64,000 bases of DNA, taken from Candidatus Eiseniibacteriota bacterium. GTDB lineage: Bacteria > Eisenbacteria > RBG-16-71-46. The position numbers and the translations under genes are program-made. The stretch lies in NCBI GenBank assembly GCA_016215625.1, contig JACRIW010000047.1:6281-70280 (forward strand). Direction: 5' to 3'. The notes under the pieces were generated by a model. It ran no database searches, was not told where the DNA came from, and saw nothing but the letters and a program-made list of their open reading frames with translations. Each line of letters starts with the position of its first letter. The first letter of the stretch is position 1. Positions 13,465 through 56,388 of this stretch are shown here, piece after piece.

Positions 13465-16400
13465 ATGCGCCCCATCCCGGCCGCCCGCCTGCTGTCCGTA
13501 CTCACAGCACTTCTCATCCTCGTACCGCGGCTCGCGAACGCGGTCGCGCTCGACTGGTGGGCGAACCGAACGTCGACTTCGTGCGTCTTCGAGTCCACCG
13601 CGCCCGGCACGATCCGGCTCGACAACTGCGCGAGCGGGTTCATCGAGGGCGACATCACGCTGCCCTCGAGCGGGAACTGGAAACTCTCGTTCGACGTGGA
13701 ACCCGACGAATCGACCGGGCGCAAGCCGAACGACTACGTCGACGTCTTCATCAACTCGGCCCGCATCGGGCGCTACTACAACACCCCCGCGGCCCCGGCA
13801 CTGCATCACGTCTCCGCGCTCGTGAACGGCTCGAGCGTGCACTACCGATTCGAGTTCCTGAGCACGGATCTCGCGACCCACATCCACATGGTCGTGCGCG
13901 CCGGACAGGCGGAACTCGAGCCTGCCTACCTCACGAACCCTTCGTTCGATGGTGGCACCTACGTCAATGCGACGCCCACGACCACAGGAGACTGGCAGGG
14001 CAATCTCGCCAGCTACGTGACCGCCGAGAACGGCGTCACTCCGTTCCAGGGCGGCCGCATGCTCAAGTTCCTGGGCACGGCCAACGGCGGCGCGAGCACG
14101 GGCGCCGGTTGTGAGGCCATCCAGTTGGTCAGCATGGCGCCCTACGCGAGCGCCGTGGCGGCCGGCATCTTCCGGCTCGAAGCGAGTGCCTACGTCAACC
14201 GCGTGGCGCTCGACTCACAGACGGACACGCAATTCGGCATCGAACTCGTAGCCTGCAGCGGCTCGATGAGCAGCTTCCCGCCGCCGGCCGCCAACCAGCT
14301 CGCGCGCGCGCGCACCCTGATCCGCACGGATGGTGACCCGGCGACATGGGAGCGCATTCCGGAGTGCCTGCTGCATGTTCCCTACGGAACGACCTACGTA
14401 GCCTACTACCTGTTCGCGGACGAAGACGTCATGAACGATGGCACCGCGCCCGAGTTCGATGGGCACTACGCCGACGGGGTCACGCTCCTGCGGGTCGCTC
14501 CGCCCGCCTGGAGCTGCGCCGATCTGGTCACGCCGGAAGGCAATGCGGGCGCCCATACGCTGACCGTGCCCGTGGCGCTCAGTGCGCCGATCTGGGCTCC
14601 CGCCTCCATCACCGCCTCGACCACCGACGGCACCGCGACCGCGGGGGACGGAGATTTCCTGCCGACGGCACAGACGCTCACGGTGAAGCCCACGCTGGCG
14701 TGGGCGCGCAAGTGGGGCTCGGTCGGTTCCGGCAACTCGCAGTTCGATCAACCCTCGGGTATCGCCGCCGATCGCTGGGGCAACATCTGGGTGGCGGACG
14801 GCAACAACCATCGGGTGGTGCGCTACACCCGCCGCAGCGATTACGCCGGCAAGTTCGGCACGAGCGGCAGCAGCCCCGGACAACTCGGCTTCGTCGTATC
14901 CGTCGCGGTCGATCCGATCTTCGGCCACGTGTATGTGGGTGGATCGGACTCACGCATTTCGGAGTTCACCGCCGACGGCACGTTCGTGCGCGAGTGGGGT
15001 TCGCCCGGCACGGGGCCGGGACAGTTCTCGACACTCAGTGGCATCGCCGTCGATTCGCAGGGCAACGTATACGCCGCCGATTGGGGCACCGGGCGTATCC
15101 AGAAGTTCTCGAGCACGGGGACCTTCCTGCTGCAGTGGGGATCGCTCGGCTCCGGGATCAGCCAACAGTCTCCCCGAGGCATCGCCATTGGCCGCCAGGA
15201 CGTCGTGTACGTGTCCGACACGTGGAACCCGCGGATCCAGCGGTAATCCTCGACGGGCGCGCCGCTCGGTCCGTTCGGCGGCTTCGGCTCCGGCCCCGGC
15301 CAGTTGAACCAACCCTGGGGCTTGTGCATCGATGCCGAGGGCAACGTGCTGGTCGCGGACCGCAGCAACAACCGCATCCAGATGTTCACGGCTTCGGGTA
15401 CCTGGCTCACGCAGTGGGGTTCGTCGGGCAGCGGCGACGGTCAGTTCAACGCTCCGATCGATGTGAGTTCGGCGCCGAACGGCGTCGTGTACGTCGTGGA
15501 GACCGGCGGGAATCGCGTGCAGTCGTTCGAACCGCGCGATCCCTCCACGAGCCTCGGACTCATCGTGTCCGGCGATGCGAGGCTCGAGAGCAACGAGAAC
15601 TTCGCGCTTTCGTTCGGCGCCCCAGCCGCGAGCGTGGCGCCCGCCGCGCCGGCGACGATCACGCTGACGAACGACGATGTCGGAGTCTTCTCCACTTCGG
15701 GTGCCTCCACCTCGCTGGTCGGTTCGGCAATGGTGAGTCCCATTGCGGATGGCCTGCGGCTGTCGAATCTGGGGCTGGCCGGAGCGGATGGGGCCGAAGT
15801 GACCGCGGGCGGCCTCAAGCTCTCGAGCACCCAGCCCGGGTCGATCGGCTTCGCCGCCGACTTCGCGAGCGCGGCCACGATTCCCGCCGGTGGCGCCAAC
15901 GTGGTCGCGCGCATGGTGGGCACCGTGGCCGGAGTCCCGCAGGCAACCATGGGCACGTACACCGTGAACCTGCTGCCGACCGGCGCCAACTCGGTCGGAG
16001 TCGACTTCTCGGGTGTCGGCGCGTCACAGTGGAACGTCGCCGTCTACAACGGCGCCACGCTCGTGCACCAGCGCACGGGACACAGTGGCGTTGGGGTGGG
16101 CTACCAGAGCTGCGGCCCCGAGCCGGGCATGCACGCGTCGGCCACCGGCGACCCGATCCCCGGCGTGGACGTCGAGATCGAGCAGGTACCGGGCGGCATC
16201 GCGGTCACGTCGCGGCCGGGCGGCTGCACCCACATCGATCTCGGTGACGGAACCGGCGTGCATGCGGGCGACCGCATCGTGTTCCGGTCGCCGTCGCCCG
16301 CCCTGCGGTCCGGCGACGGCCTCGCGGCCGTGCGGTTCACGTCGAGCCTGTCCTCGCTCGACGTGAAGAGCCTGGGCCTGCGCGTGCTGGGGGCGCTGCA

Positions 16401-17451
16401 CCGTTCGAGCGGTAACGCGCTGTTCGCGGCCAACTACAACAGCGCGAAGTCGAACACGGGGTGCATCATGAAGAACATCGGTCCGACCGGCGGTGATGGC
16501 GTGCGCATCGCCGTTCCAGAGGGCAAGAAGGCGGTGCACACCGAGTTCGGCAACACCGCGTTCCAGAGCTCGGACGCGGGCGCTTCGCTGACCGCGCGCG
16601 CGGTCGGCACCGCCAACGGCACACCGAACACGACGCTGTTCACGCTTTCGCAGACGGCCACGTCCACGGGCACCCAGCTGCGAGCGAACTTCACCGGCGC
16701 CTCGGTCGAGAGCGTGGTCGTGCTGAACGCGGGTGCGGTCGCCTATCGCGGCGAGGTGGCGAACAACGTCGTCGTGGGCGAAGAGGGCTTCCAGTCGCCC
16801 GCTCTGGGCGCGCACGAGGCGAACGGCCCGGCCCGCGTCGAAGCTGCGGGCGATCCGATTCCTGGTGTGGACATCGAGATCGAGCAAGTGCCGGGAGGCA
16901 TCTCGGCCGGTCGCTCCACGGTGCTCAACTACCGCAATCCCCGCACGTTCAACATCGGTGGCGTGCTGTACTCGGGTAACGTGATTTCATTCAAGCGCGC
17001 GTTCTCGCGCGGGTTGCACGCGCAGGTCGTGGACGACAGCACGGCGACCCTCGATGAGGTGCAGTGGATCGCCACCAACCCGGGCGCCACCACTCTCGAC
17101 AGCCTCGAGATCGTGGCCGAGACGATCGGCGCAGGCGGCACCGGGACGACGGGCGTCGGTGATTCCCCGGCACGAGTGCTGTCGGCGCTGCGAGCGTGGC
17201 CGAATCCCTCCGGGGGACGGACGGGGGTCGCGTTCACTCTCGGGTCCGCCAGCCGTGTGCGGGTCGTGATCTACGACGTCGCCGGGCGCGAGGTGCGTGA
17301 GTGGCACGCGCGGCGGTTCGAAGCGGGCGAGCATCATGTCGAATGGGACGGACTCGATGCGGGCGACCACCCGGTCGCAGCAGGCATCTACTTCGCCCGC
17401 GTCGAGGCAGGCGGAATGCGGCACGAGCTCAAGCTCGTGAGGCTTCACTGA
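13465..17451 (+). pseudogene. NHL-repeat secreted protein with T9SS-type C-terminal sorting domain, interrupted by one in-frame TAA (15244..15246)
   Basis: Track ORFs 13348..15246 and 15304..17451 are in the same frame. Signal peptide MRPIPAARLLSVLTALLILVPRLANA after a GGAG RBS. At least 5 NHL repeats span the stop (..NPRIQR*SSTGAPLGPFGGFGSGPGQLNQPWG..). C-terminus WPNPSGGRTGVAFTLGSASRVRVVIYDVAGREV...GIYFARVEAG is a Por_Secre_tail-like CTD. Confidence 0.7.
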
Positions 17452-17460
17452 GCCCCCATA

Positions 17461-17499
17461 CGAATGCGGCCGTCCCGTGCTTCGGGACGGCCGCATTCG
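17461..17499. terminator. Bidirectional intrinsic-terminator-like hairpin between convergent genes
   Basis: Perfect inverted repeat cgaatgcggccgtccc / gggacggccgcattcg around a 7-nt loop, between the NHL gene end (17451) and the HD-hydrolase gene end (17519). Confidence 0.6.
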
Positions 17500-17518
17500 T
17501 TCGCCGGAGAGGATCGGG

Positions 17519-21315: not shown

Positions 21316-21373
21316 TGCCACCGGACGAACCGATGCCCCCCGGCTCCGGCGATCGTCCTTCCCGCCGCCGCGC

Positions 21374-23731
21374 TCAGCGCACGACGACGAACTTCCGCAC
21401 CGCCTCGGCCCCACCGGCGCGCACGCGGCAGAAGTACGCACCCGCGCTCACGTCCCGGCCGTCGCGATCGCGCAGGTCCCACTCGAGCGACCACGCGCCG
21501 GCGTTCACGCGCGTGCGTTCGATCGAGCTCACGAGCCGGCCGTTCACGTCGAGCACGTCGAGCGACACCTCGCCCTCGCGGGCGAGCGTGAAGCGGAACG
21601 ACGCGTGCTCCCGCACCGGGTTCGGCGACACGGGCGCGAACTCGAGCGCCGGCCGGGTGGCGGCCACGCGCGAGTCCGTCGCGACCGCGGGGCGCATCGG
21701 CATGGGCGCGCTGCACACCTGCAGCGGGCGCATCATGTCGTTGTCCTCGTGATCGATGATGTGGCAGTGCCAGACGTAGCCCGGCCCGCCCGGATAGCCG
21801 AACGTGTCGGTCTCGCCGAGCGCCGCGCCGGGGTCGAACGAGAACAGGTTCACGCCCGGCTGCACCGAAACGCCCATGCGCGCGGCACGAGCCTCGGCGT
21901 CCTGCGGCGCGACGCGCACGAGCACGCGCGTCACCTCGCCCGGGTTCATCCGGAACGTGTCCTTCCAGCCGCGTTCGTTCGGATCCGGTGCGATCGGGAC
22001 GCCCTGCAGGAACGGCGTCACGTCGGGATTGCCGCCGAGCTTGAAGCCCGTCGCCGCGTCGCGCTGTCCGTAGGGGAACGGGCCACCCATGCCCGGCATG
22101 GGCATGCCGTACACGCCGAGGTAGCGTGAGGGAGAGAACGTCTGGCGCTCGAGCAGCTGGAACTGGAGCAGGTGCAGGTGCATCGGGTGCGTGTCCGCGG
22201 TGAGGTTGATGATCTCCCACACCTCGGTGTCGCCGACCTGCAGCTCTTCCGTGGGCATCATGTGGTAGTTCGTGTTGTTCACGAGGACCTGGAGCGGACC
22301 GAGCGGCCCCATGTCCTCGTTCAGCGTGAGGGCGCGACGCACCGGCACGCGCGCCGGGCGCTCGATCGGCGTGAGCCGCACGCGCGAGACGCGTGAAGGA
22401 TCGAGGCTCGCGTCCACGGGCGCGTTCGGCACCTTCGCCGCCACGCGGAACTGCATGACCTGGCCCGTCGTCTTCGGATCGGCCACCGCGCCCTTCGGGT
22501 ACGGCGAGCGTCCACTGTTCACGAGCGTGAACGTCCGGCCCGCGTACGCGGCGAAGTCGATGACGAGGTCCACGCGCTCACCGGGAGCGATGAGCAGGCG
22601 CTGGGGCGCCTTCACGGCGGGATTGTTGAGGAACACGGGCGCGTCGAGCAGGCCGCCGTCGCTGCCGATCTGCCAGAAGCCCGGCCCCGGCTTGTCCGTC
22701 GCGCGATCGAGGAGCCGCAGTTCGTAGAAGCGCGCGTTCGAGCCGTTCACGATGCGGAAGCGATAGCGCCGAGGCTCGACGTCGAGGTACGCCCACGCCT
22801 TGCCATTCACCATGACGACGTTGCCGAGGAACTCGGGAATCCAGAACGGGTGCACCGCAGGGTTCGTTCCGTTGCTCGGGAAATACAACTGGCCGTTCGT
22901 GTCGAACATGCGGTCCTGGATCGCCAGCCCGATCTCGTACGGCTTGCCGAAGCGGTCGAGCGCGGCGTCGGCCGGTCCGCCGGGCAGGTTGGCCGGCTCG
23001 AGCGACGGATCACGCAGCAGGTAGAAGCCCGCGAGCCCGGCGAACACGTTGATGCGCGTCATGCCGAGCGCATGGTCGTGATAGAACATCGCCGTGCCTT
23101 CCTGGTCGTTCGGGTAGGCGAACGTGTCGGTCACGTACGAAGGCCCGCGCTGCGCGAGGCCGGGCGTCCACCACGCGTCCGGACCGCCGTCGTACGCGGA
23201 CGGCACTTCGCCACCATGCAGGTGCACGGCCGCGGGCACCGGCCCCGTGTAGGGCGTGGTCGCGCCTTGCGTGCCGAGCGGATTCGCCCAGTGGAGCGTC
23301 TGGTCCACCGTGAGCGTGCCCTGCAGGTACAACGGCGAACCGTCGGCGTTGGCGAGCGCGTTCTCGTAGCGCACCCACGTGGGCGTGCCGCGGCGGGCGA
23401 CGATCGTCGGGCCGGGCGTGGAGCCGTTGTAGCCCCACACGAACGCGCCGTTCGACCACGGAGCCGGCAGCGTCGTGTAGAAAGACGCGGGAAGCAGCTT
23501 CTGCTGGAACTCGCTCATGCGGATCTGCAGCGGTGCACCCGCGCTGGTCGCGGCACCGTCGAGCGCGGAGGGCAGCGGAAGCGGGTCCACGTACTTCGGA
23601 ATGAGGGTCGGATCGAGCGGAACGGCCGCCTGGGCGAGCGCCCGGGCAGGAAGTGCGGCGCACAGGAATGCGAGGGCGAGCCCGAAGCGCACGAAGCACC
23701 GGAGCCGCGCGGAGAAGAACGCAGGGAACAT
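21374..23731 (-). CDS. CotA/bilirubin-oxidase-like multicopper oxidase with T9SS-type C-terminal sorting domain
   Basis: Signal peptide MFPAFFSARLRCFVRFGLALAFLCAALPARALA. Copper-site motifs HLHGGEV, HDHALGMTRINVFAGL, HPMHLHL, HCHIIDHEDNDMM. CTD PNPVREHASFRFTL...LDVLDVNGRLV...GAYFCRV. Confidence 0.85.
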   Translation of the reverse strand: MFPAFFSARLRCFVRFGLALAFLCAALPARALAQAAVPLDPTLIPKYVDPLPLPSALDGAATSAGAPLQIRMSEFQQKLLPASFYTTLPAPWSNGAFVWGYNGSTPGPTIVARRGTPTWVRYENALANADGSPLYLQGTLTVDQTLHWANPLGTQGATTPYTGPVPAAVHLHGGEVPSAYDGGPDAWWTPGLAQRGPSYVTDTFAYPNDQEGTAMFYHDHALGMTRINVFAGLAGFYLLRDPSLEPANLPGGPADAALDRFGKPYEIGLAIQDRMFDTNGQLYFPSNGTNPAVHPFWIPEFLGNVVMVNGKAWAYLDVEPRRYRFRIVNGSNARFYELRLLDRATDKPGPGFWQIGSDGGLLDAPVFLNNPAVKAPQRLLIAPGERVDLVIDFAAYAGRTFTLVNSGRSPYPKGAVADPKTTGQVMQFRVAAKVPNAPVDASLDPSRVSRVRLTPIERPARVPVRRALTLNEDMGPLGPLQVLVNNTNYHMMPTEELQVGDTEVWEIINLTADTHPMHLHLLQFQLLERQTFSPSRYLGVYGMPMPGMGGPFPYGQRDAATGFKLGGNPDVTPFLQGVPIAPDPNERGWKDTFRMNPGEVTRVLVRVAPQDAEARAARMGVSVQPGVNLFSFDPGAALGETDTFGYPGGPGYVWHCHIIDHEDNDMMRPLQVCSAPMPMRPAVATDSRVAATRPALEFAPVSPNPVREHASFRFTLAREGEVSLDVLDVNGRLVSSIERTRVNAGAWSLEWDLRDRDGRDVSAGAYFCRVRAGGAEAVRKFVVVR

Positions 23732-24330: not shown

Positions 24331-26559
24331 CTATCTGATCACCACCGCGCGTACCGTGCTCGCTTCGGGACCGCGGACGAGCCGCACGGCGTACACGCCC
24401 GGCGCGAGCGCGAGCCCCTCGCCGGCGCGCACGCGATGCACGCCGGCGCCGAGCGCCGTGACGTCGCGCGACCACACGCGCCGGCCCGTGACGTCGAACA
24501 CCTCGAGCCGCGCCGGCACGCCCGTCGACAGCGTGCACTCGACCTCGGGACCACGCGCCGAGGGCTGCGCGCCCGCCAGGCGCAGGGCGTCGCCGCGCCC
24601 GGGGCCGCGCCCGGCGACGCCGAGCGCCCCGGCACCGAAGTCCACCGCCCAGAGCCCGGCTTTGCCCGGACTCTGCGGCATCGCGCGCAACCCGATCAGC
24701 ATGCGGTCGTCGATCGCGTCGTACATCGCCACGGCTTCGACCGAAGTCGCCTGCGGTGCGTGCAGCGCGTTCCACGCCAACGACGGCCCGCCGAGCGCCG
24801 CCTCGAACACGCCGAGCGAGGCGTCGAGCCCGAGCAGCCGGTGACGCGCGGTGTCGAGCGCGATGGACTGCAGCATCGGGACGTCGCCCACGCGGCCGAG
24901 CACGGTCCACGTGTCCGTACCCGCGCCGGGCGCGAGCACGGCGACGTCGCCGTTCGAGTCGTGCACGAGCGTCACGTGCGCGGCGGGGTCGTACACCGCG
25001 CAGCGCACGTCGCCCGAGGGCGGCGTGCCCGTGGTGGCGAGCGCCGACCACGTCCACGTGGCGGGATCGAGCAGCCACGCGTCGTGCAGTGGCATACCGC
25101 TCGCGTTCTCGCCGCCGAGCAGCAGGAACTTCTGGCGCTGCGCGTCCCAGACGAGCGAGCCGTGCGTGCGGGCGGGCGGCTTCGTGCCCGTGACGGGCGA
25201 CGTCACCGCACCGCTCGCGAGCGAGACCACCGTCGTGGTGTTCAGCCACACCGGCGGGCTGCCCGGCGACGCGCTCTGCGAGCGCCCGCCGAAGTACACG
25301 ACCCGGTCGTGCAGCGCGTCCACGGCGACCGCCGCGTCCATGGCGTCGTGCGCGGTCGCGAAGGCGCCCCACAGCGTGTCGGGATCGTCGAACGCGGCGA
25401 TCGCGCCGCTGGTGGCGTAGTCGCCGTACGCGCTCAGCGCGCGCAGCCCGCCGTGCAGCAGGACGTGGCCCCGGCGTGGATCGAACGCGAAGTCGGAACC
25501 CTGCGCCGAGTTCGGCGAGCCGGTCGCCTGCACCGCCCACGCGAGCGCGGTCGGGCCGCCGAAGGGCATCGCGAGCACTTCGTTCCACGTCTCGGCCGCG
25601 ATGATGCCGCGCGAGGGCGAGAACCCGCCGAACGACAGCAGCCGGTCCGCGTCCGGGTCGAGCACCACGGCGCCGGACGTGCGGAAGTCGGGACGGAACG
25701 TGACGAGGTTCCACGCGGGCGAGGCCGCGACGGGATCGAGGCCGTACACCTGCGACGAGGCGCCCTCGTACCACTGCCCGTCGGCCTCGCAGAAGAAGCC
25801 GTAGCGCCCCCCCACCGCGAGCACGCGATGGCGCGCGCCGTCCCACAGGAACTGCATGTCGTACGCACCGGGCACGGACAGCGCGGGCAGCGCGGACCAC
25901 GTGAGCGTGGCGAGCGGCAGCTTCCAGCTCGCGTACGACGGCACGTAGGCCTGGCAGGCGCCTTCCCAGCGCGTGCCGCCGGTGATCACGAGCACGCCGT
26001 GCTCGGGGTCGAGCACCATCGCCTGGTCCCCGGCGATGCCGAGCGACGGGTTCACCACGGCGAGCGCCGACCACGTCGGCGGATCCGAGAGCGTCAGCTG
26101 CGAGAGCACGCCGTCCTCACCGAGCGCGATCAGGCGGTCGCCCGCTTCGTCGTACACGGCCGCCCCCAGATCGAGCGGGGCCCCCTGCGTGGACGGGAAC
26201 TCCCACGTCATGTTCGTGCGGATGGCGAGCACGCCGAGCTGGGTGAAGCCGGGAACCACGAGGCGCGAGCGCGCGCGATCGAGGAAGACGTTGCGCCCCG
26301 ATCCGTACTGGCCGAGCCCGGCGCCGAACGAGCCGATGCCGTGCCACTTCCAGTGCGTGATCGCCGCGGGGTCGTAGCTCCACACCCCTTCGGAGGACGC
26401 TTCGAACACCCAGCACTGGTGCCGGTCCGCGTCCCAGAGCGCGTGACCGGTGATGGGCGGGGCGAGCGGACGGCGCACGCCGGCCGGACCGGCCGACGCG
26501 GAGAGCGGAAACGAGAGCGCGGCGAGAAGCACCGCGGCGAGCACGTGAGAGTGCGGCAT
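24331..26559 (-). CDS. Kelch/galactose-oxidase-like beta-propeller secreted protein with T9SS-type C-terminal sorting domain
   Basis: Signal peptide MPHSHVLAAVLLAALSFPLSASA. Repeated W...D/GG-containing blades. CTD ...ARLEVFDVTGRRVW...GVYAVRLV. Confidence 0.7.
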   Translation of the reverse strand: MPHSHVLAAVLLAALSFPLSASAGPAGVRRPLAPPITGHALWDADRHQCWVFEASSEGVWSYDPAAITHWKWHGIGSFGAGLGQYGSGRNVFLDRARSRLVVPGFTQLGVLAIRTNMTWEFPSTQGAPLDLGAAVYDEAGDRLIALGEDGVLSQLTLSDPPTWSALAVVNPSLGIAGDQAMVLDPEHGVLVITGGTRWEGACQAYVPSYASWKLPLATLTWSALPALSVPGAYDMQFLWDGARHRVLAVGGRYGFFCEADGQWYEGASSQVYGLDPVAASPAWNLVTFRPDFRTSGAVVLDPDADRLLSFGGFSPSRGIIAAETWNEVLAMPFGGPTALAWAVQATGSPNSAQGSDFAFDPRRGHVLLHGGLRALSAYGDYATSGAIAAFDDPDTLWGAFATAHDAMDAAVAVDALHDRVVYFGGRSQSASPGSPPVWLNTTTVVSLASGAVTSPVTGTKPPARTHGSLVWDAQRQKFLLLGGENASGMPLHDAWLLDPATWTWSALATTGTPPSGDVRCAVYDPAAHVTLVHDSNGDVAVLAPGAGTDTWTVLGRVGDVPMLQSIALDTARHRLLGLDASLGVFEAALGGPSLAWNALHAPQATSVEAVAMYDAIDDRMLIGLRAMPQSPGKAGLWAVDFGAGALGVAGRGPGRGDALRLAGAQPSARGPEVECTLSTGVPARLEVFDVTGRRVWSRDVTALGAGVHRVRAGEGLALAPGVYAVRLVRGPEASTVRAVVIR

Positions 26560-26646
26560 GGCGGGAAACTCCGGATGCGACGAACGAACCGAGGCCGTGC
26601 GGGGGAGTGTCGGCAATGGTAGCCCGGCCGCGAGCACCGCCGGAGC

Positions 26647-29624: not shown

Positions 29625-32600
29625 TCAGTCCCCCAGCGGCACGAATCCCGACCACGCCGCGGGCGGGGTCGGCAACTTCGCCGCACGCAACACGGCGAGC
29701 CGCCGCAGCTGCGCGGCGCGGACGCTCGCCGCGACACCGAGGCCACGCTCGAGCCGGGCGCCGTAGTACGCGCTCATCCAGTCGTGCGTCGCGCGGTCGT
29801 TCACGGGCCACAGGCTCATCACGAGCGCATGCGCGCCCGCGAGGCGGAATGCGCGCTGGAGCCCCAGCACGCCCTCCCCGGCGGCGATGTCGCCGAGACC
29901 GGTGTCGCACGCGGAAAGCACGACTTCGTGCACGCCGGAGAGGTCCATCGTCGAGATCTCTTCCGCGGTCAGGATGCCGTCGTCCCCGCCGGTCGCGGCA
30001 GCACGGCGGTTCGCGCCCGCGAGCGCGAGCCCGGAGAGCCGCAGCGTCTGGCGTCCGCTCGGCGCGCTCGCGCTGCCGGAGCTCGCGGCGGGCGCCGTGC
30101 CGCCGATGCCTCGCGCCCCACCGGCGGGCGTGGCGCATTCGCCTCCCACGAAGAAGCCGTGCGTGGCGATGTGCAGCGTCGCGGCGCGCGAGGCCGTGCG
30201 GCGCAGCTCGACTTCGTTGGCCTGCGCGCCCGTCAGCATGACGACTTCACGCCCGGCGGCGCGCCATCGTTCCGCCAGCTCGCCGACTTCGTCGGACGTC
30301 GAGGGCAGCGCGCCGAAACGCACGTCACGGAAGCGGTCGCAGGCGACGGGCACGTTGCGCAGGTTCGCGGCGATCACGTCGGTCGCCGCGTGGGGAGCCG
30401 TGGCGCCGTCGAAATCGGCGCCTCCCAGGGCGACCAACGTGCCGATCGGCGCGTCGGAGGAGCGCACGAGGGCGAGGTCGCGCTCGGCCCCGAGCCGCAG
30501 GAGCAACGGCGCGCGCTCGGCGACGTAGCCGCCGCGCGCGTCCGGCAGCGCGGCGAAGTCCACCAGGTGCAGCGCACCGTCCGGCACGATCACGAGGCGC
30601 GACGCCGACGCGAGTCGCGACGCGATCGGGTCCCACACTCGCGCGCGCAGGCGCGCGCCGCTGGCTCGCGAGCGGCGCTCGGCGTCGGGGCCGGTGCGCG
30701 AGACGTCCTCGCGCCAGTTTGCGGCGAGCGCGTCGAGCTCGGCCGCGCGGCCGAGCGCCACGACTTCGGGGGCCGCGCCGGAACGCGCCACGAACGCGAG
30801 CATGCGCCGTTCGGTGCGCGAACCTCCCGCGGGCGCCGCGTATTCGAGGAACGAGACGAGCACGTCGCCCTCTCCCAGCGCGTCGAGCGGATGCGCGCCG
30901 CCGGGGACGTCCTGCGGCAGGCCGAGATCGGCGAGCCGGCGCTCGAATCGTTCGGCACGCGAGCGCGCGTCGCGCTGCAGCGAGTCCAGCGCGTGGTTGC
31001 TTTCGGCACGCACGAGCCAGCGCGCGAGCACGCCGCGCGCCTGCGCGAGCGAATCGAGCAGCGCGTTCGCGCGCGGATCGTCGCCGCGATGCGCCGCCTT
31101 CAACCGGCTGCCGACTTCGTCGAGCACCAGCGACCGCGCCTCGACGACCCGATCGAACGCGATGCGGCGTTGCGCGTCGTCGAGCTTTCCGGAAGCCGCG
31201 AGTGCGAGCAACGGATCGAGTCCGAGTCCCGACCCCCGTGCGTACACGAGCGCCTGCCGGTCGGGGAACCCGCGCGCGGCCGTGCGCAACAGCGAGGCCT
31301 GCATCGCGGCCAGCTCGCGCGAGACCTCGAACGCACGCGCGTCGCCCATCTGCACGAGCGCACGGGCGCGCTCGGCGACCAGCTTCGCGTGCAGCGGTCC
31401 GCCGGAGCCCAGTTCGGTGATCGCTCGAGCGATCGCGGGCTCGAGCCTGGCCGCCGCCTCCGCGGGCCGGCCGGCGTCGGTCAGGCACTGCGCCCAGAGC
31501 AGCGCGCCTTCGTAGAAGCCCGGCGCGCGGTCGCCTTCGCGTTCGGCGATCCGCGACGCGAGCTCGATCCCGTGCATCGCCGCGGCGCTGTCGCCGGCGA
31601 CGCGAAGAGCGGTGGCGCGCTCGAACAGGATCGGCAGCGCCGAGAGACTGTCCTGCCGCGCCGCCTGGTACGCCGCGGCGCTGTCGAAGCACGCGACGGC
31701 CTCACGACCACGCCCCAGCCCGAGCAACGCACGGCCGCGCTGGTGCAGGTACTCGTAGTGCGACGGATCGTCCGGACGGAACGCGCGCAGGCTCAGGTGG
31801 CGTGCGCGCTCCTGGACCGCGAACGCCTCCTCGAAGTCGCCGAGGTCGTTCAGGCACTCGACCAGCGCGTCGGCGCTGTTCGCGACGCGCAGCGTGTCCA
31901 TGCGGGGACGCGCCAGCTCCCACTCGATGCCGCGCTCGAAGAGCCCGCGCGCGCGCACGAGATCGCCCACGCGCATCGACAGGATCGCGATGTTGTATCG
32001 CGTGAGCTGCGTGTCCGGATGATCGGGACCGAGCTGGATCTCGAGCAGGTGCGCCACGTGCTCCATCATCTCGAGCGCGCCGACCTCGTCACCGGCCATG
32101 TTGAGCTGTCCGGCGAGTGCGCTGTAGGTCGCCATGAGCCGGATGTCGTCCCGGCCGAAGTGCGACTCCATGATCCGCACCGCGCGCCTGCCTTCCTCGA
32201 CCGCGTCGGTGCGCGCGGCGTTCGTCGCGATGAGCGCGACCTGCCGCAGCGACGACGCGACCTCGAGGTCGTCCCCGGGCAGCGCACGTTCGTACATCGC
32301 GAGCGCGCGCCGCGCGTCGCGCACGGCGGGTTCGAACTCGCGCCGGCGGCGGTGCACTTCGGAGGAGGCGCGGATCGCGCGTGCGAGCGTGAGCGAATCC
32401 GGCCCCGGGTGCTTCGAGAAGATCGCGAGCGTGCGCTGGAGCTGTTCGAGGAGCAGCCCTTCGCGGCCGCGGCCGGCGAGCGCGCCGATCTCGACGACGT
32501 CGAGCAAGGCCACGCCGACCTTGAACGAGTCCGGCTCCTGGCGCGCCACGAGCTGCGAATAGGCCGCGGTCGCGAGGGTGTCCATGCGCGGGAATGCGCG

Positions 32601-32744
32601 GGCCTTGGCGAGTTCGGTCCATTGCGGGCGGTAGCCGATCGAACGCCAAGAGAGCGTGTCGAGCGGCGCGGCGGATCGGCCGCGAGCGGCGGCCGCGGGT
32701 CCGGCGAGGAGAGCGAGCAGGCAGAGAGCGAGCAGGGTGCGCAT
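29625..32744 (-). CDS. Large TPR-repeat plus CHAT-domain secreted protein (second CHAT protein in window)
   Basis: Signal peptide MRTLLALCLLALLAGPAAAA. ~600 aa of TPR-like repeats. C-terminal CHAT region (LHIATHGFF...VVLSACDTGLG...SLWPVND). Confidence 0.75.
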   Translation of the reverse strand: MRTLLALCLLALLAGPAAAARGRSAAPLDTLSWRSIGYRPQWTELAKARAFPRMDTLATAAYSQLVARQEPDSFKVGVALLDVVEIGALAGRGREGLLLEQLQRTLAIFSKHPGPDSLTLARAIRASSEVHRRRREFEPAVRDARRALAMYERALPGDDLEVASSLRQVALIATNAARTDAVEEGRRAVRIMESHFGRDDIRLMATYSALAGQLNMAGDEVGALEMMEHVAHLLEIQLGPDHPDTQLTRYNIAILSMRVGDLVRARGLFERGIEWELARPRMDTLRVANSADALVECLNDLGDFEEAFAVQERARHLSLRAFRPDDPSHYEYLHQRGRALLGLGRGREAVACFDSAAAYQAARQDSLSALPILFERATALRVAGDSAAAMHGIELASRIAEREGDRAPGFYEGALLWAQCLTDAGRPAEAAARLEPAIARAITELGSGGPLHAKLVAERARALVQMGDARAFEVSRELAAMQASLLRTAARGFPDRQALVYARGSGLGLDPLLALAASGKLDDAQRRIAFDRVVEARSLVLDEVGSRLKAAHRGDDPRANALLDSLAQARGVLARWLVRAESNHALDSLQRDARSRAERFERRLADLGLPQDVPGGAHPLDALGEGDVLVSFLEYAAPAGGSRTERRMLAFVARSGAAPEVVALGRAAELDALAANWREDVSRTGPDAERRSRASGARLRARVWDPIASRLASASRLVIVPDGALHLVDFAALPDARGGYVAERAPLLLRLGAERDLALVRSSDAPIGTLVALGGADFDGATAPHAATDVIAANLRNVPVACDRFRDVRFGALPSTSDEVGELAERWRAAGREVVMLTGAQANEVELRRTASRAATLHIATHGFFVGGECATPAGGARGIGGTAPAASSGSASAPSGRQTLRLSGLALAGANRRAAATGGDDGILTAEEISTMDLSGVHEVVLSACDTGLGDIAAGEGVLGLQRAFRLAGAHALVMSLWPVNDRATHDWMSAYYGARLERGLGVAASVRAAQLRRLAVLRAAKLPTPPAAWSGFVPLGD

Positions 32745-32990: not shown

Positions 32991-34649
32991 ATGAACGCCA
33001 TGAAGCGCTCGCTGCTCGCCCTTTCGGCCGTGTTGACCCTGCTCGCCCCCACCGCGGCGCACGCCCAGTGGGTGACGGCGCTCAACGCGAACAACATCGT
33101 GAGCAACGCCGCGAACCACCAAAAGGACCCGCAGACGTTCAGCGACGGCGCGGGCGGGTTCGTGACCGTCTGGACCGACCTCCGCACGTCCGGACACCAG
33201 GACCTCTACGCGCAGTCCTACGACGCGAACGGCTTCGCGCGCTGGACCGCGAATGGTGTCGTGGTGGATTCGACCGTGGGCACTCTTGCCGCGGCCGACG
33301 CCTGCCCCGACGATTCGGGCGGCGTCATCGTGACCTGGTACCGGACCAACGGCGCGGCGCCCAACCGTGTCTTCGCGCAGCGGCTCGACGCGAACGGCCA
33401 GCGCCGCTGGGGCGCCGGCGGCACGCGAGTCGGAACGGTCGAAGTGACGCAGACGCTGCCGCGCATCGCCGAGGACGGCGAGGGCGGCGCGATCGTGGTG
33501 TGGGCGAACTGGCTGGCGAGTTTCACGGCGAACGTCTTCGGGCAGCGGCTCGACCGCAACGGCAACCGGCTCTGGTCGGCGACGGGTGACTCGCTCGTCG
33601 CGCGCGGCGAAGTGCGCAGCCTCACGGCCACGCGGCGCCCGGGAGGCGGCGCGTTCGTCGGCTACTGGTACACGTTCGGCCCGCTCGCCATGGTCGCGGT
33701 GGACAACGCGCGCGTGCGGCTCATGTCGGACACGATCACGACCGCCGCTTCGCAGACGTCGCCTCCGGCGCTCTTCAGCGCCACCGCAGGCGACGGCGCG
33801 TACCTCATGATGGCGGGCGGCAACAACATGAACATCCGCCGGTTCGGTGCGGACGGCAGCCGTTGGCCGGCGTCGGTGCGTGTCGTGGCCGGAGCGCACT
33901 CGCAGGCGCATCCGATGCTCGCCGGCGGCGGTGCGGACGGCAGCGCGCTGCTCGCCTGGCGCGACGGACGCGCCGGCGCCGGCGGCATCTATGCGCAGAA
34001 GCTGCGTACCGACGGGCTCCCGATGTGGGGCACCGACGGGCTCTTCATTTCGAACAACGTGACCTCGAACGGTGGCGGGCACACGATCGCGGCGGACGAC
34101 CTGAACGGCGCGTGGATCGCGTGGAGTGCGAACGTGGATCGCATCGCGCAGCACGTCATGTCCGGCGGCGGCTTCTGGCTGCCTCCCGCGGGCGTCACGT
34201 TCTCGAACGCGAACAGCAGCAACTTCACCTACGACGCCGCGACCATCGTGCCCGGGCTGCAGAGTTCGGCGATCGTCGTCTGGGCGACGACGCAGAGCGC
34301 CGGCACGTTCAACGACGTGCACGCGAAGCGGCTGTTCGGCGACGGCTCGCTGACGACGGCGGGCGTGGGCGACGGCTTCGCGACGGACGCGGGGCTGGCG
34401 CTCGCCGCAGGACCGTCGCCGGCGCGTACGAACGTCACGCTGCGGTTCGCGCTTACGCGCGCCGGGCGGGCGACGCTCGAGCTGTTCGGCGTGCGTGGCG
34501 AGCGCGTGGCAACGCTCGCGGACGGCGACTTCGCCGCGGGCACGCACTTCCGCACGATGGACACGTCGGCGCTCGCGCCGGGCGTGTATCTCGCACGGCT
34601 GACGACGAGCGACGGGGTGGTGAGCGCGAAGGTCGTGCGGGTGAGGTAG
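32991..34649 (+). CDS. Secreted degenerate-repeat protein with T9SS-type C-terminal sorting domain
   Basis: TAAGGAGATG RBS. Signal peptide MNAMKRSLLALSAVLTLLAPTAAHA. ~6 degenerate repeats (..YAQ.LD.NG...W..GG...). CTD PSPARTNVTLRFAL...LELFGVRGERV...GVYLARLT. Confidence 0.75.
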   Translation: MNAMKRSLLALSAVLTLLAPTAAHAQWVTALNANNIVSNAANHQKDPQTFSDGAGGFVTVWTDLRTSGHQDLYAQSYDANGFARWTANGVVVDSTVGTLAAADACPDDSGGVIVTWYRTNGAAPNRVFAQRLDANGQRRWGAGGTRVGTVEVTQTLPRIAEDGEGGAIVVWANWLASFTANVFGQRLDRNGNRLWSATGDSLVARGEVRSLTATRRPGGGAFVGYWYTFGPLAMVAVDNARVRLMSDTITTAASQTSPPALFSATAGDGAYLMMAGGNNMNIRRFGADGSRWPASVRVVAGAHSQAHPMLAGGGADGSALLAWRDGRAGAGGIYAQKLRTDGLPMWGTDGLFISNNVTSNGGGHTIAADDLNGAWIAWSANVDRIAQHVMSGGGFWLPPAGVTFSNANSSNFTYDAATIVPGLQSSAIVVWATTQSAGTFNDVHAKRLFGDGSLTTAGVGDGFATDAGLALAAGPSPARTNVTLRFALTRAGRATLELFGVRGERVATLADGDFAAGTHFRTMDTSALAPGVYLARLTTSDGVVSAKVVRVR

Positions 34650-47116: not shown

Positions 47117-47623
47117 CTACAACTCCCGCCAGTAGTGCGCGCGCGTGAGGTGGCCGTCCTCGAGGGCGAACGACTTCGGCTCCGTGCCCCAGCGGACGAA
47201 GCCGCAGGACTCGTAGAGCTTCAGGGCCGGGTCGTTGCCCTCGATGGCCGAGAGCTGGATCACCGTCAGGCCGGGCCGCGCCCGGGCGGCGTCGAGCGCG
47301 GCCTCGACGAGCACGCGTCCCGTTCCCGTGCCGCGCGCGGCCGGGCTCACGAACATCCCGAACAGCGTGCAGCGGTGGCGCGTGCGCACGCGCTGCTCGA
47401 ACTGCAGCCCGGCGGCGCCCACGAGCCGTTCGCCCTCGAACGCGCCGACGACCAGCTGCGCGCTGCCGTCGCCCTCGGCCACGCGTCCTTCCCACCAGGA
47501 CATCGGGTAGCGCTCGGCTTCGGCCGGGCTCGTGCCGAACGTCACGGGCACGGTCGCGTACGCCTCGAGCATGAGCGCGCGATAGGCGGCCGCGTCGGCG
47601 GGCGCGAGGCGGCGGATGATCAC
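47117..47623 (-). CDS. GNAT-family N-acetyltransferase
   Basis: VIIRRLAPADAAAYRALM...QRVRTRHRCTLFGMFVSPAARGTGTGRVLVEAAL is acetyl-CoA-binding motif A. GTG start overlaps protease stop (GTGA). Confidence 0.7.
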   Translation of the reverse strand: MIIRRLAPADAAAYRALMLEAYATVPVTFGTSPAEAERYPMSWWEGRVAEGDGSAQLVVGAFEGERLVGAAGLQFEQRVRTRHRCTLFGMFVSPAARGTGTGRVLVEAALDAARARPGLTVIQLSAIEGNDPALKLYESCGFVRWGTEPKSFALEDGHLTRAHYWREL

Positions 47624-50217: not shown

Positions 50218-50300
50218 TGCGCAAGCGGCGGATGGAGCGCGCAGGATAGGCGGCCCGCTTCGGCGCGGTCCAGACTCGAATGCGCCGCCATGCGGCGCCC

Positions 50301-51176: not shown

Positions 51177-51190
51177 CGCACCGTAGCGCA

Positions 51191-51227
51191 GGAAAACGCG
51201 AAGCGCCCGGCCCGAAGGCCGGACGCT
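51191..51227 (-). terminator. Intrinsic terminator downstream of DUF4114 gene
   Basis: Minus strand: gcgtccggccttcgggccgggcgc hairpin followed by TTCGCGTTTTCC. Confidence 0.55.
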
Positions 51228-51254
51228 CGCGGGGGAAGCCTGGGCCGTCGAAGC

Positions 51255-52022: not shown

Positions 52023-52280
52023 GGTCGGGACTCCTTGGCGTATGGGGGACAGGGCGCGTTTCTGCGCAGGCCGTACGTCACCCGCGCGAAACGCCGTTCC
52101 ACCGGGTCACCCGCAAGGACGGGTCCACGCCCGGGCCGCGCCGGCCCTCCCCGTAAGTGCCGCATTCGCACGGGCGGCGTTCGTCCGCCCCACCCACGAG
52201 GCCTCCTCGCGGGAAGGCCCTTTGTAGAAATGGGTGCCCTCTCCCACGGGCGACACGGCCGTCCGGACGGTGAAACGCGA

Positions 52281-52304
52281 GCGGCCACCCCGAAGGGTGG
52301 CCGC
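52281..52304 (-). terminator. Intrinsic terminator downstream of the Calx-beta giant gene
   Basis: gcggccaccc-cgaa-gggtggccgc 10-bp stem. On the minus strand it is followed by TCGCGTTTCACC. Confidence 0.5.
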
Positions 52305-52338
52305 TGCGATGTCCCGCTCGTGCGACGTCCGGCGCCGA

Positions 52339-55300
52339 TCAGCGCACGATCGCGAACCGGCGGCTGAACACCTTGCCGCCCGCCTCGAAGCGCACGAAAT
52401 AAAGGCCGCGCGCGACCGTCGAGCCGGTCTGGACCGCGGACCAGTTCGCGAGGTGACGGCCGGCGGGCTGGACGCCGCTCGCCAGGACGGCCACCTCACG
52501 GCCCTGCACGTCGAGGATGCTCACGCGCACGCGCGACTCCCGCGGAAGCGCGTACTCGAACTGCACCGCACCGCGCGAGGGATTCGGCATCACGGCGCCG
52601 AGCGCGAACTCGGAAGCCGCGCCACCACCGACTCCCGTCGTGGCGTCCTTGATCTGGAACACCGCGTCGCTCGTGTCGGAGACCGAGTTGCAGTTGCCGT
52701 CCGTCGCCGTGACGCGCAGGAGCGCGGTCGTGCTCGTCGGGCCGGTCACCGTCCAGGCGTACGAACCCGTGTTGGCGAGGCCCGAGGCGAGGTTCGTCCA
52801 GTTCGCGCCACCGTCGCGCGACAGGTCGATCGAGACGGCGCTCACCGACACGTCGTCGCCCGCCGTCCACTGCAGCGAGGCGCTCGTGCCGATGTCGAGG
52901 CCTTCACCACCGTTCGGCGACGTGACCGCGGCCGTCGGCGCCGTCGTGTTGTCGTCGTTCTGGATCGTGCCGGTGACCGGGCTGGCCGCGATGGTCGCGT
53001 TCACGGCGTTCGAGAGCACGACGTCCACCGTCTCGTCGGCCTCACCGCACACGTCGCCGTTCACCGTCACGGTGATCGAGCCGCTCGTGGACTTCGCGGG
53101 AATCGTGAGCGTGCCGCTCCCGGCCACGTAGTCCGTGCCCGCCGTCGCGCTGCCGCCCGACGTCTGCCAGTCCACGGAGACGGCCTGCGAGGTGCCGTTC
53201 GTGAGCGTCACGAGGAACGTGAGCGTCGAAGTGCCCGCGTCCCCTTCGGCGACGGACGCCGGCGACACCGACAGCACCGGACCCGTGTCGTCGTTCACGA
53301 TCGTGCCCACGCCCTGCGGCACGCCGATGCGACAGGCGACCGGGTTCGAGAGCTTCATGAGGAAGTATTCGTTCGGCTCCTGGATGTCGTCGCCGTAGAC
53401 GAGCGCGTTGACCGGCTTGCTCGTCTCACCGGCCGCGAACGTCATCGTGCTGCCGCCCGAGGCGTAGTCGCCGTGCACGACGGTCGCGGTGCTGTCCGCC
53501 GTCGCGATGTCCACGCTCAGCGGCAGGCCGCTGGCGGCGCTCAGCGAGACGACGAACGTCATCACCGCGCTGCCCGTGTTGCCTTCGGTCTGCGCGACGC
53601 TGTTGATGCTGACGATCGGGCTGAGGTCGTCGTTGTTGATGGTGCCGTCGGCGAACGACTGGAAGCCGAGCGTGGCGCCGGAGGGCGACGAGAGGATCAG
53701 CGAGAACGCCTCGTTCGCCTCGTACTTCGTGTCGCCGCGGACGACCACGTTCACCGTGCCGCTCGTCTGGCCGGCGGTCAGCGTGAGCGTGCCCGTGAGC
53801 GCGTCGTAGTCGCCGTCCGCCGTGGTGGCGGTGCCGTCGGAGGTCGAGTAGCCGACGCTCACCGGCAGCCCGGACGCCGCGGAGAGCGAGACCGTGAAGC
53901 CCACGTTCACGGTGCCCGAGTTGCCTTCGGTCACCGCCACCGGGCTCACCGACACCGAGGGCTGCGCGTCGTCGTTGTTGATCGTGCCGGTACCGGTGCC
54001 CGTGCCGATCGTGCAGCCGACCGGGCTCGACAGCGTGACCGAGAACGTTTCGTTGGCTTCGTACTTCGTGTCGCCGTTCACCGTCACGGTGAACGTGCCG
54101 GAAGCGGTGTTCGCCGGGATCGTCAGCGTGCCGCTCGCGGCGGCGTAGTCGCCGTCCGCCGTGGTCGCGGTGCCGTTCGACGCGGCGTAGTTGACCGAAA
54201 CCGCCGAGGCCGACGTCTGCGAGAGCGCGACCGTGAACGTGAAGTTCGTGGTGCCCGAGTTGCCCTCGGACGCCGTCACGCTGTTCACGCTCGCCGAAGG
54301 CGTGCCGCCGATCACGCGCACGATCGCGGCCGACGAAGTCTGGCCGTCCGGGTTCGTGATCGTGAGCGTGTACTTCTCGGCGCCGATGTTCGCGGTCGCG
54401 CTCGAGGTGTTGAGCACGAGGTTCACCGTCGTCGGGTTCACGTACGTGGCCGACACGACCGTCGGCGGCGTACCCGTGGCGGAGCCGTTCGTGATGGAGG
54501 CCGAAAGGTGGTTGAAGGCCGGGACGCCCGGCAGGTTCGCACCCGGATCGAAGAAGCCCGAGCCCGACACCGACGCGCCGGTCAGCACGACGTTCACCGT
54601 CGCCTGCCCCGCGTTCACGTCGGCCAGCGTGGTGGGCGTCGCCGGAGGCGGCGCGATGAGCTTGGTGACGCGCACGCCGTAGGAGTTCGCCGCGTTCGTG
54701 AACTGCGTGACCGACCACATGGTCATGTCGTCGAGCGGGTCCACGCTCGTGTACGAGTAATCACCCCAGCGGCGGCCGACGCCGGCCGACCCGGGGTCGC
54801 TCGGCGGGTTGTACGCGGATGCGGCGGCGGTGATGAGCGCCGGCGTCTGCATGGTGCCCACGGCGTCGCCCGCGAGGCGGCCGACGGTCGCGGCGTTCGC
54901 GTATTCGGCCGAGCCGGCCGTGTTCATGGTCATCGCGACGTGGCCCTGGCCCGACACGTTCACCGACGGCACCCAGTAGCTGCGCTGGTCGGTCAGGTTC
55001 GTGGCGGAGGCGGCGTACACGGTGCCCGACTGCGACAGCGTCGGCGTGCCGCCGACGGGCACGTTGACGTCGTACCAGCGCGAACCGTTGCGCGTGAGCG
55101 TGCCCGAGGAGACGCCGGTGTTGTTCACGCCGACGTTGTGCGCCGTCCAGAGATGCGTGCCGCGCAGCTGCGCCGCGAACAGGCGGTCGTCGAGCGAGCT
55201 GAGGCGGCCGTTGTTGCCGCCGGTGTTGCCGAGGTGCGGCACGAGCACGGGCGATCCGGTCGCCGGCACGGTGATGCCGATGTTGGCCGAGATCGTCGGC

Positions 55301-56388
55301 GTGCCGCCGGGATTCGAGACACGGCGCATCTGGAGCAGCCCCCAGCTCGCGTTGTCCACGCCGATGAAGTAGCCCTCGGTCGCGGCCGGGTCGAAGTTGT
55401 CCACGCCCTGCGGGGTGTAGGGACCGGCGGCGGCCGAGCTGGCGACGAGGCCGTTGAACGCGGTCACCACGATCGGGCCGGCGCCCATGATGGACGTCTT
55501 GCGGACGACGAAGCCGCTCGTGCCCGTGTAGTTCTGGGTCGGCGAGCCGCAGAAGTTGTTCGTGCCGATGTACAGCGCGTTCGCATCGAGGCCGAGCGTC
55601 GGATAGTCCGCGAGGCAGGTCGCCGCGAGACCGAGCGTCGAGATGTCGAAGTAGAAGTACGTCCACACCGTCGAGCCCGAGATCACGCCGGCGCTCGCCG
55701 CGTCGGACACCGCGAAGAGCACGCGGTTCGGCGTCGAGACGTTGATGATGATCATGAACCAGCGGCCGGTCAGGCGGTCGTAGCGGATGCGCGGGTCGCT
55801 CGTGGAGGAGCCGTTCACGACGCTCGCGAAGAACACGTCCGGATCCACGTTGAGCACGCCGTCGGCGATGCCCGTCGTCTTGTTGAACGACACGAGGCGG
55901 CCGTTCACGAACACGACCATCTGCGCCGGGCCGACCGCGCCCATGTTGTCGGGCGGGAACGACAGCGTCGGGTTGGTGCCCGAGAGGGTCGCGGCGGTGA
56001 AGCTGGTGCCGATGGTCTGCGGCGCGAGCGGCTGCGTGATGCGCCCGAGCGGCGCGAGGTCGCGCAGGCTGCCGTCGGCGGCGGACACGAAGGGCGCCGC
56101 GGGATTCTGCGGCAGCGACCGGCGGTCGCGCTTCTGGACGCGCTCTTCCTTCTCCTCGTTGTTGCGCGGCGCGCGGCGGCCGAGCACGTCGGCCTTCGCC
56201 TGGCGTGAGGCGACGTCGGACATCCGTTCGCGGATGCCGACGGCCCCGGTGTGGGACACGCCCCGGATCTCGCCGGAAGCGGCGGGCTGGGCAGCCGTCT
56301 CGGCCTGCTGCGCGTGGACGGTGGGCACGGCGAACAGCATCGCCAGTGCGAGCGAGACGGCGGCGAACGGCGGACGCTTCTGCAGCAT
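52339..56388 (-). CDS. Giant secreted protein (~1350 aa) with 5-6 Calx-beta domains and T9SS-type C-terminal sorting domain
   Basis: Start MLQKRPPFAAVSLALAMLFAVPTVHA after a GGGGAG RBS. Repeated ...GDTKYEANE.F...LS.P.G...G...GTI.NDD Calx-beta motifs. CTD MPNPSRGAVQFEYALPRESRVRVSILDVQGREV...GLYFVRFEAGG. Confidence 0.8.
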   Translation of the reverse strand: MLQKRPPFAAVSLALAMLFAVPTVHAQQAETAAQPAASGEIRGVSHTGAVGIRERMSDVASRQAKADVLGRRAPRNNEEKEERVQKRDRRSLPQNPAAPFVSAADGSLRDLAPLGRITQPLAPQTIGTSFTAATLSGTNPTLSFPPDNMGAVGPAQMVVFVNGRLVSFNKTTGIADGVLNVDPDVFFASVVNGSSTSDPRIRYDRLTGRWFMIIINVSTPNRVLFAVSDAASAGVISGSTVWTYFYFDISTLGLAATCLADYPTLGLDANALYIGTNNFCGSPTQNYTGTSGFVVRKTSIMGAGPIVVTAFNGLVASSAAAGPYTPQGVDNFDPAATEGYFIGVDNASWGLLQMRRVSNPGGTPTISANIGITVPATGSPVLVPHLGNTGGNNGRLSSLDDRLFAAQLRGTHLWTAHNVGVNNTGVSSGTLTRNGSRWYDVNVPVGGTPTLSQSGTVYAASATNLTDQRSYWVPSVNVSGQGHVAMTMNTAGSAEYANAATVGRLAGDAVGTMQTPALITAAASAYNPPSDPGSAGVGRRWGDYSYTSVDPLDDMTMWSVTQFTNAANSYGVRVTKLIAPPPATPTTLADVNAGQATVNVVLTGASVSGSGFFDPGANLPGVPAFNHLSASITNGSATGTPPTVVSATYVNPTTVNLVLNTSSATANIGAEKYTLTITNPDGQTSSAAIVRVIGGTPSASVNSVTASEGNSGTTNFTFTVALSQTSASAVSVNYAASNGTATTADGDYAAASGTLTIPANTASGTFTVTVNGDTKYEANETFSVTLSSPVGCTIGTGTGTGTINNDDAQPSVSVSPVAVTEGNSGTVNVGFTVSLSAASGLPVSVGYSTSDGTATTADGDYDALTGTLTLTAGQTSGTVNVVVRGDTKYEANEAFSLILSSPSGATLGFQSFADGTINNDDLSPIVSINSVAQTEGNTGSAVMTFVVSLSAASGLPLSVDIATADSTATVVHGDYASGGSTMTFAAGETSKPVNALVYGDDIQEPNEYFLMKLSNPVACRIGVPQGVGTIVNDDTGPVLSVSPASVAEGDAGTSTLTFLVTLTNGTSQAVSVDWQTSGGSATAGTDYVAGSGTLTIPAKSTSGSITVTVNGDVCGEADETVDVVLSNAVNATIAASPVTGTIQNDDNTTAPTAAVTSPNGGEGLDIGTSASLQWTAGDDVSVSAVSIDLSRDGGANWTNLASGLANTGSYAWTVTGPTSTTALLRVTATDGNCNSVSDTSDAVFQIKDATTGVGGGAASEFALGAVMPNPSRGAVQFEYALPRESRVRVSILDVQGREVAVLASGVQPAGRHLANWSAVQTGSTVARGLYFVRFEAGGKVFSRRFAIVR

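Follow-up and report, generated by a model that had tools for sequence, protein, structure and literature searches.

A probable type IX secretion sorting tail on five unrelated large proteins of a Candidatus Eisenbacteria bacterium

Results

We analyzed a stretch of 64,000 nucleotides (hereafter the window) from contig JACRIW010000047.1, an 86,346-bp contig of a Candidatus Eisenbacteria bacterium with the GenBank proteins MBI5169216–MBI5169242, and focused on five genes for large proteins that end in the same kind of domain. The original prediction, made from the sequence, took this domain for the C-terminal domain (CTD) of cargo proteins of a type IX secretion system (T9SS). Genes in the window, which has a G+C content of 70%, were called from codon-position G+C together with Pfam and NCBIfam. 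Two hidden Markov models (HMMs) of the tail, one built from four of the window tails and the other from 95 homologues, were each run on the six-frame translation of the window. Both returned exactly the same five matches; none else rose above noise with the four-tail HMM, and the 95-homologue HMM scored the five at 64 to 113 bits. All five matches run to the last residue before the stop codon of a large open reading frame (ORF), confirming the claim that five large cargo proteins share one C-terminal tail. This tail is about 90 residues long and is carried by five otherwise unrelated passengers; with pairwise identities of 28–46%, the five tails are members of one family rather than copies of one another.

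The tails were located at 17179..17448 (+) in an NHL-propeller protein (WPNP ... YDVAGREV ... GIYFARV ... KLVRLH), at 21377..21646 (−) in a multicopper oxidase (SPNP ... LDVNGRLV ... GAYFCRV ... KFVVVR), at 24334..24603 (−) in a Kelch protein (FDVTGRRV ... GVYAVRL ... RAVVIR), at 34377..34646 (+) in a repeat protein termed ORF4 (GPSP ... FGVRGERV ... GVYLARL ... KVVRVR) and at 52342..52611 (−) in a Calx-beta protein, where the tail ends in RFAIVR. The assignments of the NHL, oxidase and ORF4 tails come from the HMMs, the NCBIfam model TIGR04183 and a model of terminal copies described below; the Kelch tail was assigned by the lineage profile and the terminal-copy model, and the Calx-beta tail was additionally modeled with AlphaFold2 and used in a fold search. 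The (W/M)PNP start that had been proposed as a common signature was recovered as PNP in three of the five tails, while ORF4 has PSP and the degenerate Kelch tail AQP. The Gly of D-x-x-G in the beta3–beta4 loop, DxxG(R), is invariant in all five. Judged by eye, each cargo protein also starts with a Sec-type signal peptide (MRPIPAARLLSVLTALLILVPRLANA; MFPAFFSARLRCFVRFGLALAFLCAALPARALA; MPHSHVLAAVLLAALSFPLSASA; MKRSLLALSAVLTLLAPTAAHA; MLQKRPPFAAVSLALAMLFAVPTVHA).

The passenger identities given in the original prediction were borne out by Pfam families (NHL, Kelch and four Calx-beta domains), by a solved structure for the oxidase and by repeats of about 55 residues in ORF4. The NHL gene (13465..17451, +; TIGR04183 32.0 bits) encodes a signal peptide, an N-terminal domain of unknown type, a six-blade NHL propeller, a long Ig-like or unknown region and the CTD. 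It is broken by an in-frame TAA at 15244–15246, at a conserved F/Y position of propeller blade 4, so that the tail-bearing ORF after the stop is 15247..17451 (+) and GenBank splits the gene into two proteins, MBI5169216.1 and MBI5169217.1. A contig from the Logan assembly of SRR12113407 (L077) is identical to window positions 7225–17767 except for one base in 10,543 bp: it has C for A at 15246, which gives TAC (Tyr) and one intact NHL ORF of 1328 residues. Because L077 reads through this position as a single ORF, the comparison of the two assemblies indicates that the stop is an assembly error or a minor allele. Stop-codon readthrough (recoding) and a real split of the gene were also considered and are ruled out by the one-base difference.

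The oxidase gene (21374..23731, −) encodes a CotA-like three-domain multicopper oxidase of 785 residues with signal peptide and CTD, a 100% match to MBI5169220.1. It matches PF07731 and PF07732 in Pfam, its closest solved structure is Bacillus subtilis CotA (1GSK, E of 1.4e-93, aligned over residues 45–539), and its translation contains all four copper-ligand motifs (HLHG, HDH, HPMHLH and HCHIIDHEDNDM). A tail of this kind is kept in at least 60 oxidase homologues or clusters from metagenomes (52–80% identity). Since the tails of oxidase orthologues are 34–67% identical and the catalytic parts 60–86%, the tails change rapidly together with their cargo. The combination of oxidase and tail is frequent in metagenomes, barely mentioned in the literature and essentially undescribed; a single paper in the literature searched mentions T9SS and multicopper oxidase together.

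The Kelch gene (24331..26562, −) encodes a Kelch-type beta-propeller protein, recognized by the Pfam Kelch families, with a signal peptide and the degenerate CTD. It is the sole one of the five cargo genes that is kept at the same position in the closest relatives, with orthologues of 74% and 59% identity in loci L001 and L002 between the genes for biotin carboxylase and PhoH. We also considered the Kelch protein as an analogue of PorZ and rejected this, as the PorZ model gave no match.

ORF4 (32991..34649, +; MBI5169224.1) encodes a protein of 552 residues with signal peptide and CTD. A degenerate repeat about 55 residues long, '..VVW....(Y/F)(A/G)Q(R/K)LD.NG...W', occurs in it at least five times, and the protein is a probable propeller. 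The CTD is the only family match that Pfam and NCBIfam gave in this protein, and no sequence relative was found in PDB. The Calx-beta gene (52339..56388, −; MBI5169242.1) encodes 1349 residues comprising a signal peptide, an N-terminal region of about 700 residues of unknown type, four Calx-beta domains (165.8 bits with Pfam Calx-beta) and the CTD; a search of PDB found no sequence relative of the N-terminal region. GenBank (PGAP) gives the name 'T9SS type A sorting domain-containing protein' to three of the five cargo proteins, ORF4 and the Calx-beta protein among them; other Eisenbacteria proteins carry this name at NCBI too.

For the family assignment of the tail, we relied on public models. 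TIGR04183 (T9SS type A; model length 72, cut-off 23 bits) was passed by four of the five tails, namely those of NHL (32.0 bits), the oxidase (27.9), ORF4 (25.7) and Calx-beta (35.4), in each of which the match extends from model position 1–3 to 70–71. The Kelch tail stays below the public models (TIGR04183 16.3 bits, FlgD_ig 14.8 bits) and was recognized by the lineage profile at 64 bits. None of the five cargo proteins matched the type B sorting model, TIGR04131 or PF13585 (CHU_C). The FlgD N-terminal domain is absent from all of them, and scores with the equivalog FlgD models fall far short of the cut-offs. The family profile aligns with the solved CTDs of PorU (E of 9.5e-9, with the PNP start included), RgpB, PorZ and mirolase. 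An AlphaFold2 model of the Calx-beta CTD (pLDDT 94.7) is a beta-sandwich with six DSSP strands of at least three residues and short N-terminal bridges, and this modeled Ig-like (immunoglobulin-like) fold resembles the solved CTDs. As a discriminator of sorting tails the fold search was rejected, because generic Ig domains score equally.

The position of the domain within its protein proved more informative. In related Eisenbacteria loci (1.11 Mb) we found 27 further tails, all of them terminal, so that all 32 tails (5 from the window and 27 from related loci) are single copies ending at most six residues from the stop. Across 1.84 billion representative proteins, the family profile matches 549,853, and the best 150 of these are mostly large proteins with 4–25 internal tandem Ig copies resembling FlgD_ig. 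In such tandem-repeat proteins the internal copies end about 11 profile positions early, whereas terminal copies continue to the end of the profile, where they close with [RK][RK]hhhh[KR]. We built separate HMMs from terminal and internal copies, neither of which contains window sequences, and all 32 tails scored 13–31 bits higher with the terminal-copy HMM, including the Kelch tail (28.6 versus 6.5 bits). The terminal consensus, '..QNYPNPFNP..T.I.Y.L......V.L.IYDVAGRLV......L.AG.....WDG.D..G..V.SGVYF.RL.AG....TRKLVLLK', scores 49.5 bits with TIGR04183, matching the whole model, and 36 bits with Por_Secre_tail, above its gathering score. In sequence, the window tails lie between FlgD_ig and Por_Secre_tail. 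In Porphyromonas gingivalis, secretion was shown experimentally to depend on the loop Gly and the last strand of the CTD (PMC11285876), and the window tails conserve both elements needed there, with the loop Gly in place and a basic residue in their last strand.

Two further points concern annotation. Internal FlgD_ig-like repeats can turn a 'T9SS type A' annotation that uses score only into a false positive. Separately, two long-read ENA assemblies (L075, 10001–10390; L076, 10001–10333) contain mini-ORFs that consist of the tail only and share 4 nt with the large ORF before them. They are frameshift-split cargo genes, and many of the 105 short database proteins that consist of the tail only are probably such fragments.

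Regarding the host, the original prediction had named Gemmatimonadota. This was not upheld: two Candidatus Eisenbacteria metagenome-assembled genomes encode PgpH proteins with 97% and 92% identity to the one in the window, the search yielded about 60 further Eisenbacteria matches before Latescibacterota and Krumholzibacteriia at 35–37%, and the GenBank names agree with this lineage. The accompanying guess of an FCB-like lineage was a reasonable one.

We then examined the arrangement of the five genes relative to a conserved backbone, composed of carboxyltransferase (CT), enoyl-CoA hydratase (ECH), biotin carboxylase (BC), a variable gap, PhoH, PgpH, YbeY and TonB. About 20 Eisenbacteria genomes are colinear for the order CT-ECH-BC ... 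PhoH-PgpH-YbeY-TonB (window 8736–60168 against loci L001–L065), and the cargo genes occupy at least four separate lineage-variable slots in it. They lie on both strands, and between them stand housekeeping genes, among them phoH-pgpH and genes of acyl-CoA metabolism. About 8 kb inserted between pgpH and ybeY hold the NHL gene and an operon for a sigma factor, an anti-sigma factor and a CHAT-TPR protein; this insertion is missing from the two closest relatives. The oxidase gene is absent from all related loci compared. Of the five, the Kelch gene alone is present in the closest relatives, whose PgpH proteins are 97% and 92% identical to that of the window. ORF4 and the Calx-beta gene lie within about 28.7 kb between ECH (28760) and CT (58216), which are adjacent in many relatives.

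The operon beside the NHL gene spans 9398..13282 (−) and was delimited by Pfam and by gene calls on L077; it consists of an ECF-like sigma factor (12527–13282, −), a zf-HC2-like anti-sigma factor ('HARTCAECEERL'; 11773–12537, −) and a CHAT-TPR protein (9398–11674, −). A second CHAT-TPR gene (29625..32744, −; Pfam CHAT 190 bits) stands head-to-head with ORF4, so that each of the two CHAT-TPR genes is head-to-head with a tail-bearing cargo gene, NHL or ORF4. A regulatory link between the CHAT/sigma modules and the cargo genes is possible; such a pairing was not seen in the related loci. ARAGORN called a tRNA-Ala(GGC) at 11539–11615 (−), which we considered as an island integration site. This call is a false positive: it sits inside the CHAT-TPR ORF, and Rfam gave no tRNA match at this place even with E values up to 10 admitted.

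Other genes of the window were also noted. The stretch of about 28.7 kb between ECH and CT holds a catabolic cluster with a BcrAD/HgdAB-type dehydratase, a thiolase and a TetR regulator. Adjoining ORF4, at the edge of a variable stretch, is an ORF of 456 residues (34682–36052, −) whose C terminus carries a motif resembling HNH nucleases, with a weak match to IscB/HNH; it may be a mobile-element remnant. A large Met-zincin (DUF4953/DUF5117; 47620–50217, −) has no tail. Directly upstream of the Calx-beta gene and on the same strand lies a gene for a polytopic membrane protein of about 530 residues (56591–58200, −) with a strong coding signal and no Pfam match, and an unknown secreted protein (59952–60908, +) and a DinB-like protein (61014–61650, −) are encoded nearby.

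Discussion

We consider it probable that the five genes encode unrelated exported proteins, each composed of a Sec signal peptide, a passenger and a single terminal Ig-like tail of the T9SS type A CTD family, and that they are separate items of accessory cargo. Under such a mechanism, Sec would move the cargo proteins to the periplasm, where the folded tail would be recognized by a T9SS-like outer-membrane translocon, presumably through the beta3–beta4 loop DxxG[R] and the last strand with its basic and hydrophobic residues, [KR]-h-h-h-h-[RH]. After that, the passenger would be released or tethered at the cell surface. A laccase-like oxidase, a Calx-beta protein resembling adhesins and three propellers would be exported in this way.

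Several observations weigh against this interpretation. Por_Secre_tail (PF18962) scores 21–24 bits, below its gathering score of 27 in all four tails matched, and is outscored in the window tails by FlgD_ig (PF13860; 42.6 bits, 31.1 in the oxidase and 23.4), which exceeds its own gathering score in two tails. FlgD is also the top PDB sequence match of the family profile (E of 5e-11), and generic Ig and macroglobulin domains match the tail fold as well as CTDs do. The consensus of internal repeats itself passes TIGR04183 (28.6 bits), though only over positions 1–60 of 72. The signal peptides, moreover, were assigned by inspection only, and NCBI taxonomy places the phylum under 'Bacteria candidate phyla' and not in the FCB group. 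No porU, porV, sprA or porK-N gene was found in the window with Pfam and NCBIfam among all ORFs, unknowns included, and a search with P. gingivalis Sov (query sequence from the supplement of PMC7323717) found no homologue in the window and 77 related loci (1.2 Mb). NCBIfam likewise detected no PorU or PorZ among nine large tail-bearing ORFs of the related loci, and two long contigs sampled at random in the surroundings of tail genes yielded no T9SS core genes; these negatives apply to the DNA searched and say nothing on the genome as a whole. No paper found in our literature search linked Eisenbacteria to T9SS, to type IX secretion or to gliding, and reviews of T9SS-bearing phyla do not list them. 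The tail might instead be a generic FlgD_ig-type Ig domain that stands last by chance, a structural, spacer or binding module without a sorting function in an organism that has no T9SS, and the Pfam and PDB rankings, a fold search dominated by generic domains, the tandem arrays among the best 150 of the profile matches and the lack of core genes in the DNA searched would all fit. What makes this unlikely is that all 32 Eisenbacteria copies are single, terminal and attached to unrelated passengers, prefer the terminal-copy model and reach the profile end with a [KR]hhhh[RKH] strand that is missing from internal copies, and that four of the five window tails cover the whole of TIGR04183, where the internal-repeat consensus stops. 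Because that consensus passes the TIGR04183 score and yet ends at position 60, terminal position and last-strand coverage are, in these sequences, the real discriminator and weigh more than score; both are found in the window tails, which, judged in this way, are more than generic Ig folds. The original assignment to the Por_Secre_tail/T9SS type therefore stands in part: the suggested HMM check was positive with TIGR04183 in four tails and agrees with the terminal-model preference, but it fell short with Por_Secre_tail in all four that matched, and the fold is generic.

The same positional and motif evidence for a signal would also hold if the tail were a true sorting signal read by other machinery, be it a diverged, reduced or undescribed system of this candidate phylum. 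The intermediate place of the tails between FlgD_ig and Por_Secre_tail and the absence of Eisenbacteria from published lists and papers on T9SS are compatible with that explanation. We nevertheless hold it to be quite improbable, given that both T9SS recognition elements of P. gingivalis are conserved, that homology is detectable to the tails of PorU and PorZ, themselves T9SS parts, and that no positive evidence for another machine was obtained. There is, in its most specific form, a slim chance that Eisenbacteria lack a canonical T9SS and that a terminal domain intermediate between FlgD_ig and Por_Secre_tail is read by an undescribed outer-membrane export or anchoring machinery; if so, the tails, including the widespread laccase-and-tail architecture, would be the signature of a new sorting route. 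A different question is whether the density of the five genes would be explained by a single functional island, in which secretion cargo is inherited or regulated together. The original prediction called this density high, and with five tails, all within 43 kb, in the 64 kb of the window and 27 in 1.11 Mb of related loci (a sampled background of about 24 per Mb) the excess is indeed roughly threefold; the Poisson p of about 0.02 per window is, however, weak, and by chance a genome of 4–5 Mb should contain about one window of such density. Two of the cargo genes are head-to-head with CHAT-TPR genes and one accompanies a sigma/anti-sigma pair, as an island might have it, whereas the two strands, the intervening housekeeping genes, the at least four variable slots and the closest relatives with the Kelch gene only make an island very improbable. 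The tail identities of 28–46% correspond to the family baseline, which argues against recent duplication, and we saw no sign of recent exchange among the window tails. Because the genes lie on both strands in separate variable slots and their tails are only distantly alike, they are, on this comparison of loci, best read as ordinary accessory cargo genes and not as a secretion locus.

Taking the tails as probable members of the T9SS type A family, we compared them with known systems. Like the CTDs of P. gingivalis RgpB, PorU and PorZ and of Tannerella forsythia mirolase, they are single domains of about 80–90 residues at the extreme C terminus of unrelated, apparently Sec-exported proteins, and they share with those CTDs the PNP-type start (three of five), the DxxG(R/K) loop with its invariant Gly, GxY(F)xR(L/V), the basic/hydrophobic last strand and the Ig-like sandwich. 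They differ in having Arg for Lys throughout, as expected at 70% G+C, in a FlgD-like middle part ('AG.H...WD..D..G'), in their low PF18962 scores, with a Kelch tail too diverged for either public model, and in a host phylum without a described T9SS. The sequence homology to the FlgD Ig-like domain (PF13860), which is known from the flagellar hook-cap protein FlgD and, as internal tandem arrays, from large surface proteins, is clear; unlike FlgD, the window proteins have no FlgD N-terminal domain, and unlike FlgD_ig/Big-type tandem repeats, the window copy is single and terminal with an extra last strand and a terminal basic residue. The oxidase resembles CotA and bilirubin-oxidase-type three-domain oxidases in its alignment to 1GSK and its four copper motifs, and is unlike CotA in having a Sec signal peptide (with no twin-arginine motif) and a T9SS-type tail.

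For annotation, these results mean that sorting tails cannot be told from internal FlgD_ig repeats by the TIGR04183 score cut-off alone. Should the tails function as predicted, export of the T9SS type would reach a candidate phylum that is missing from published T9SS lists. These bacteria of soil, groundwater and wastewater would then place a CotA-like laccase and several propellers and adhesin-like proteins on or outside the cell, which would be relevant to the oxidation of phenolics, humics or Mn in these environments.

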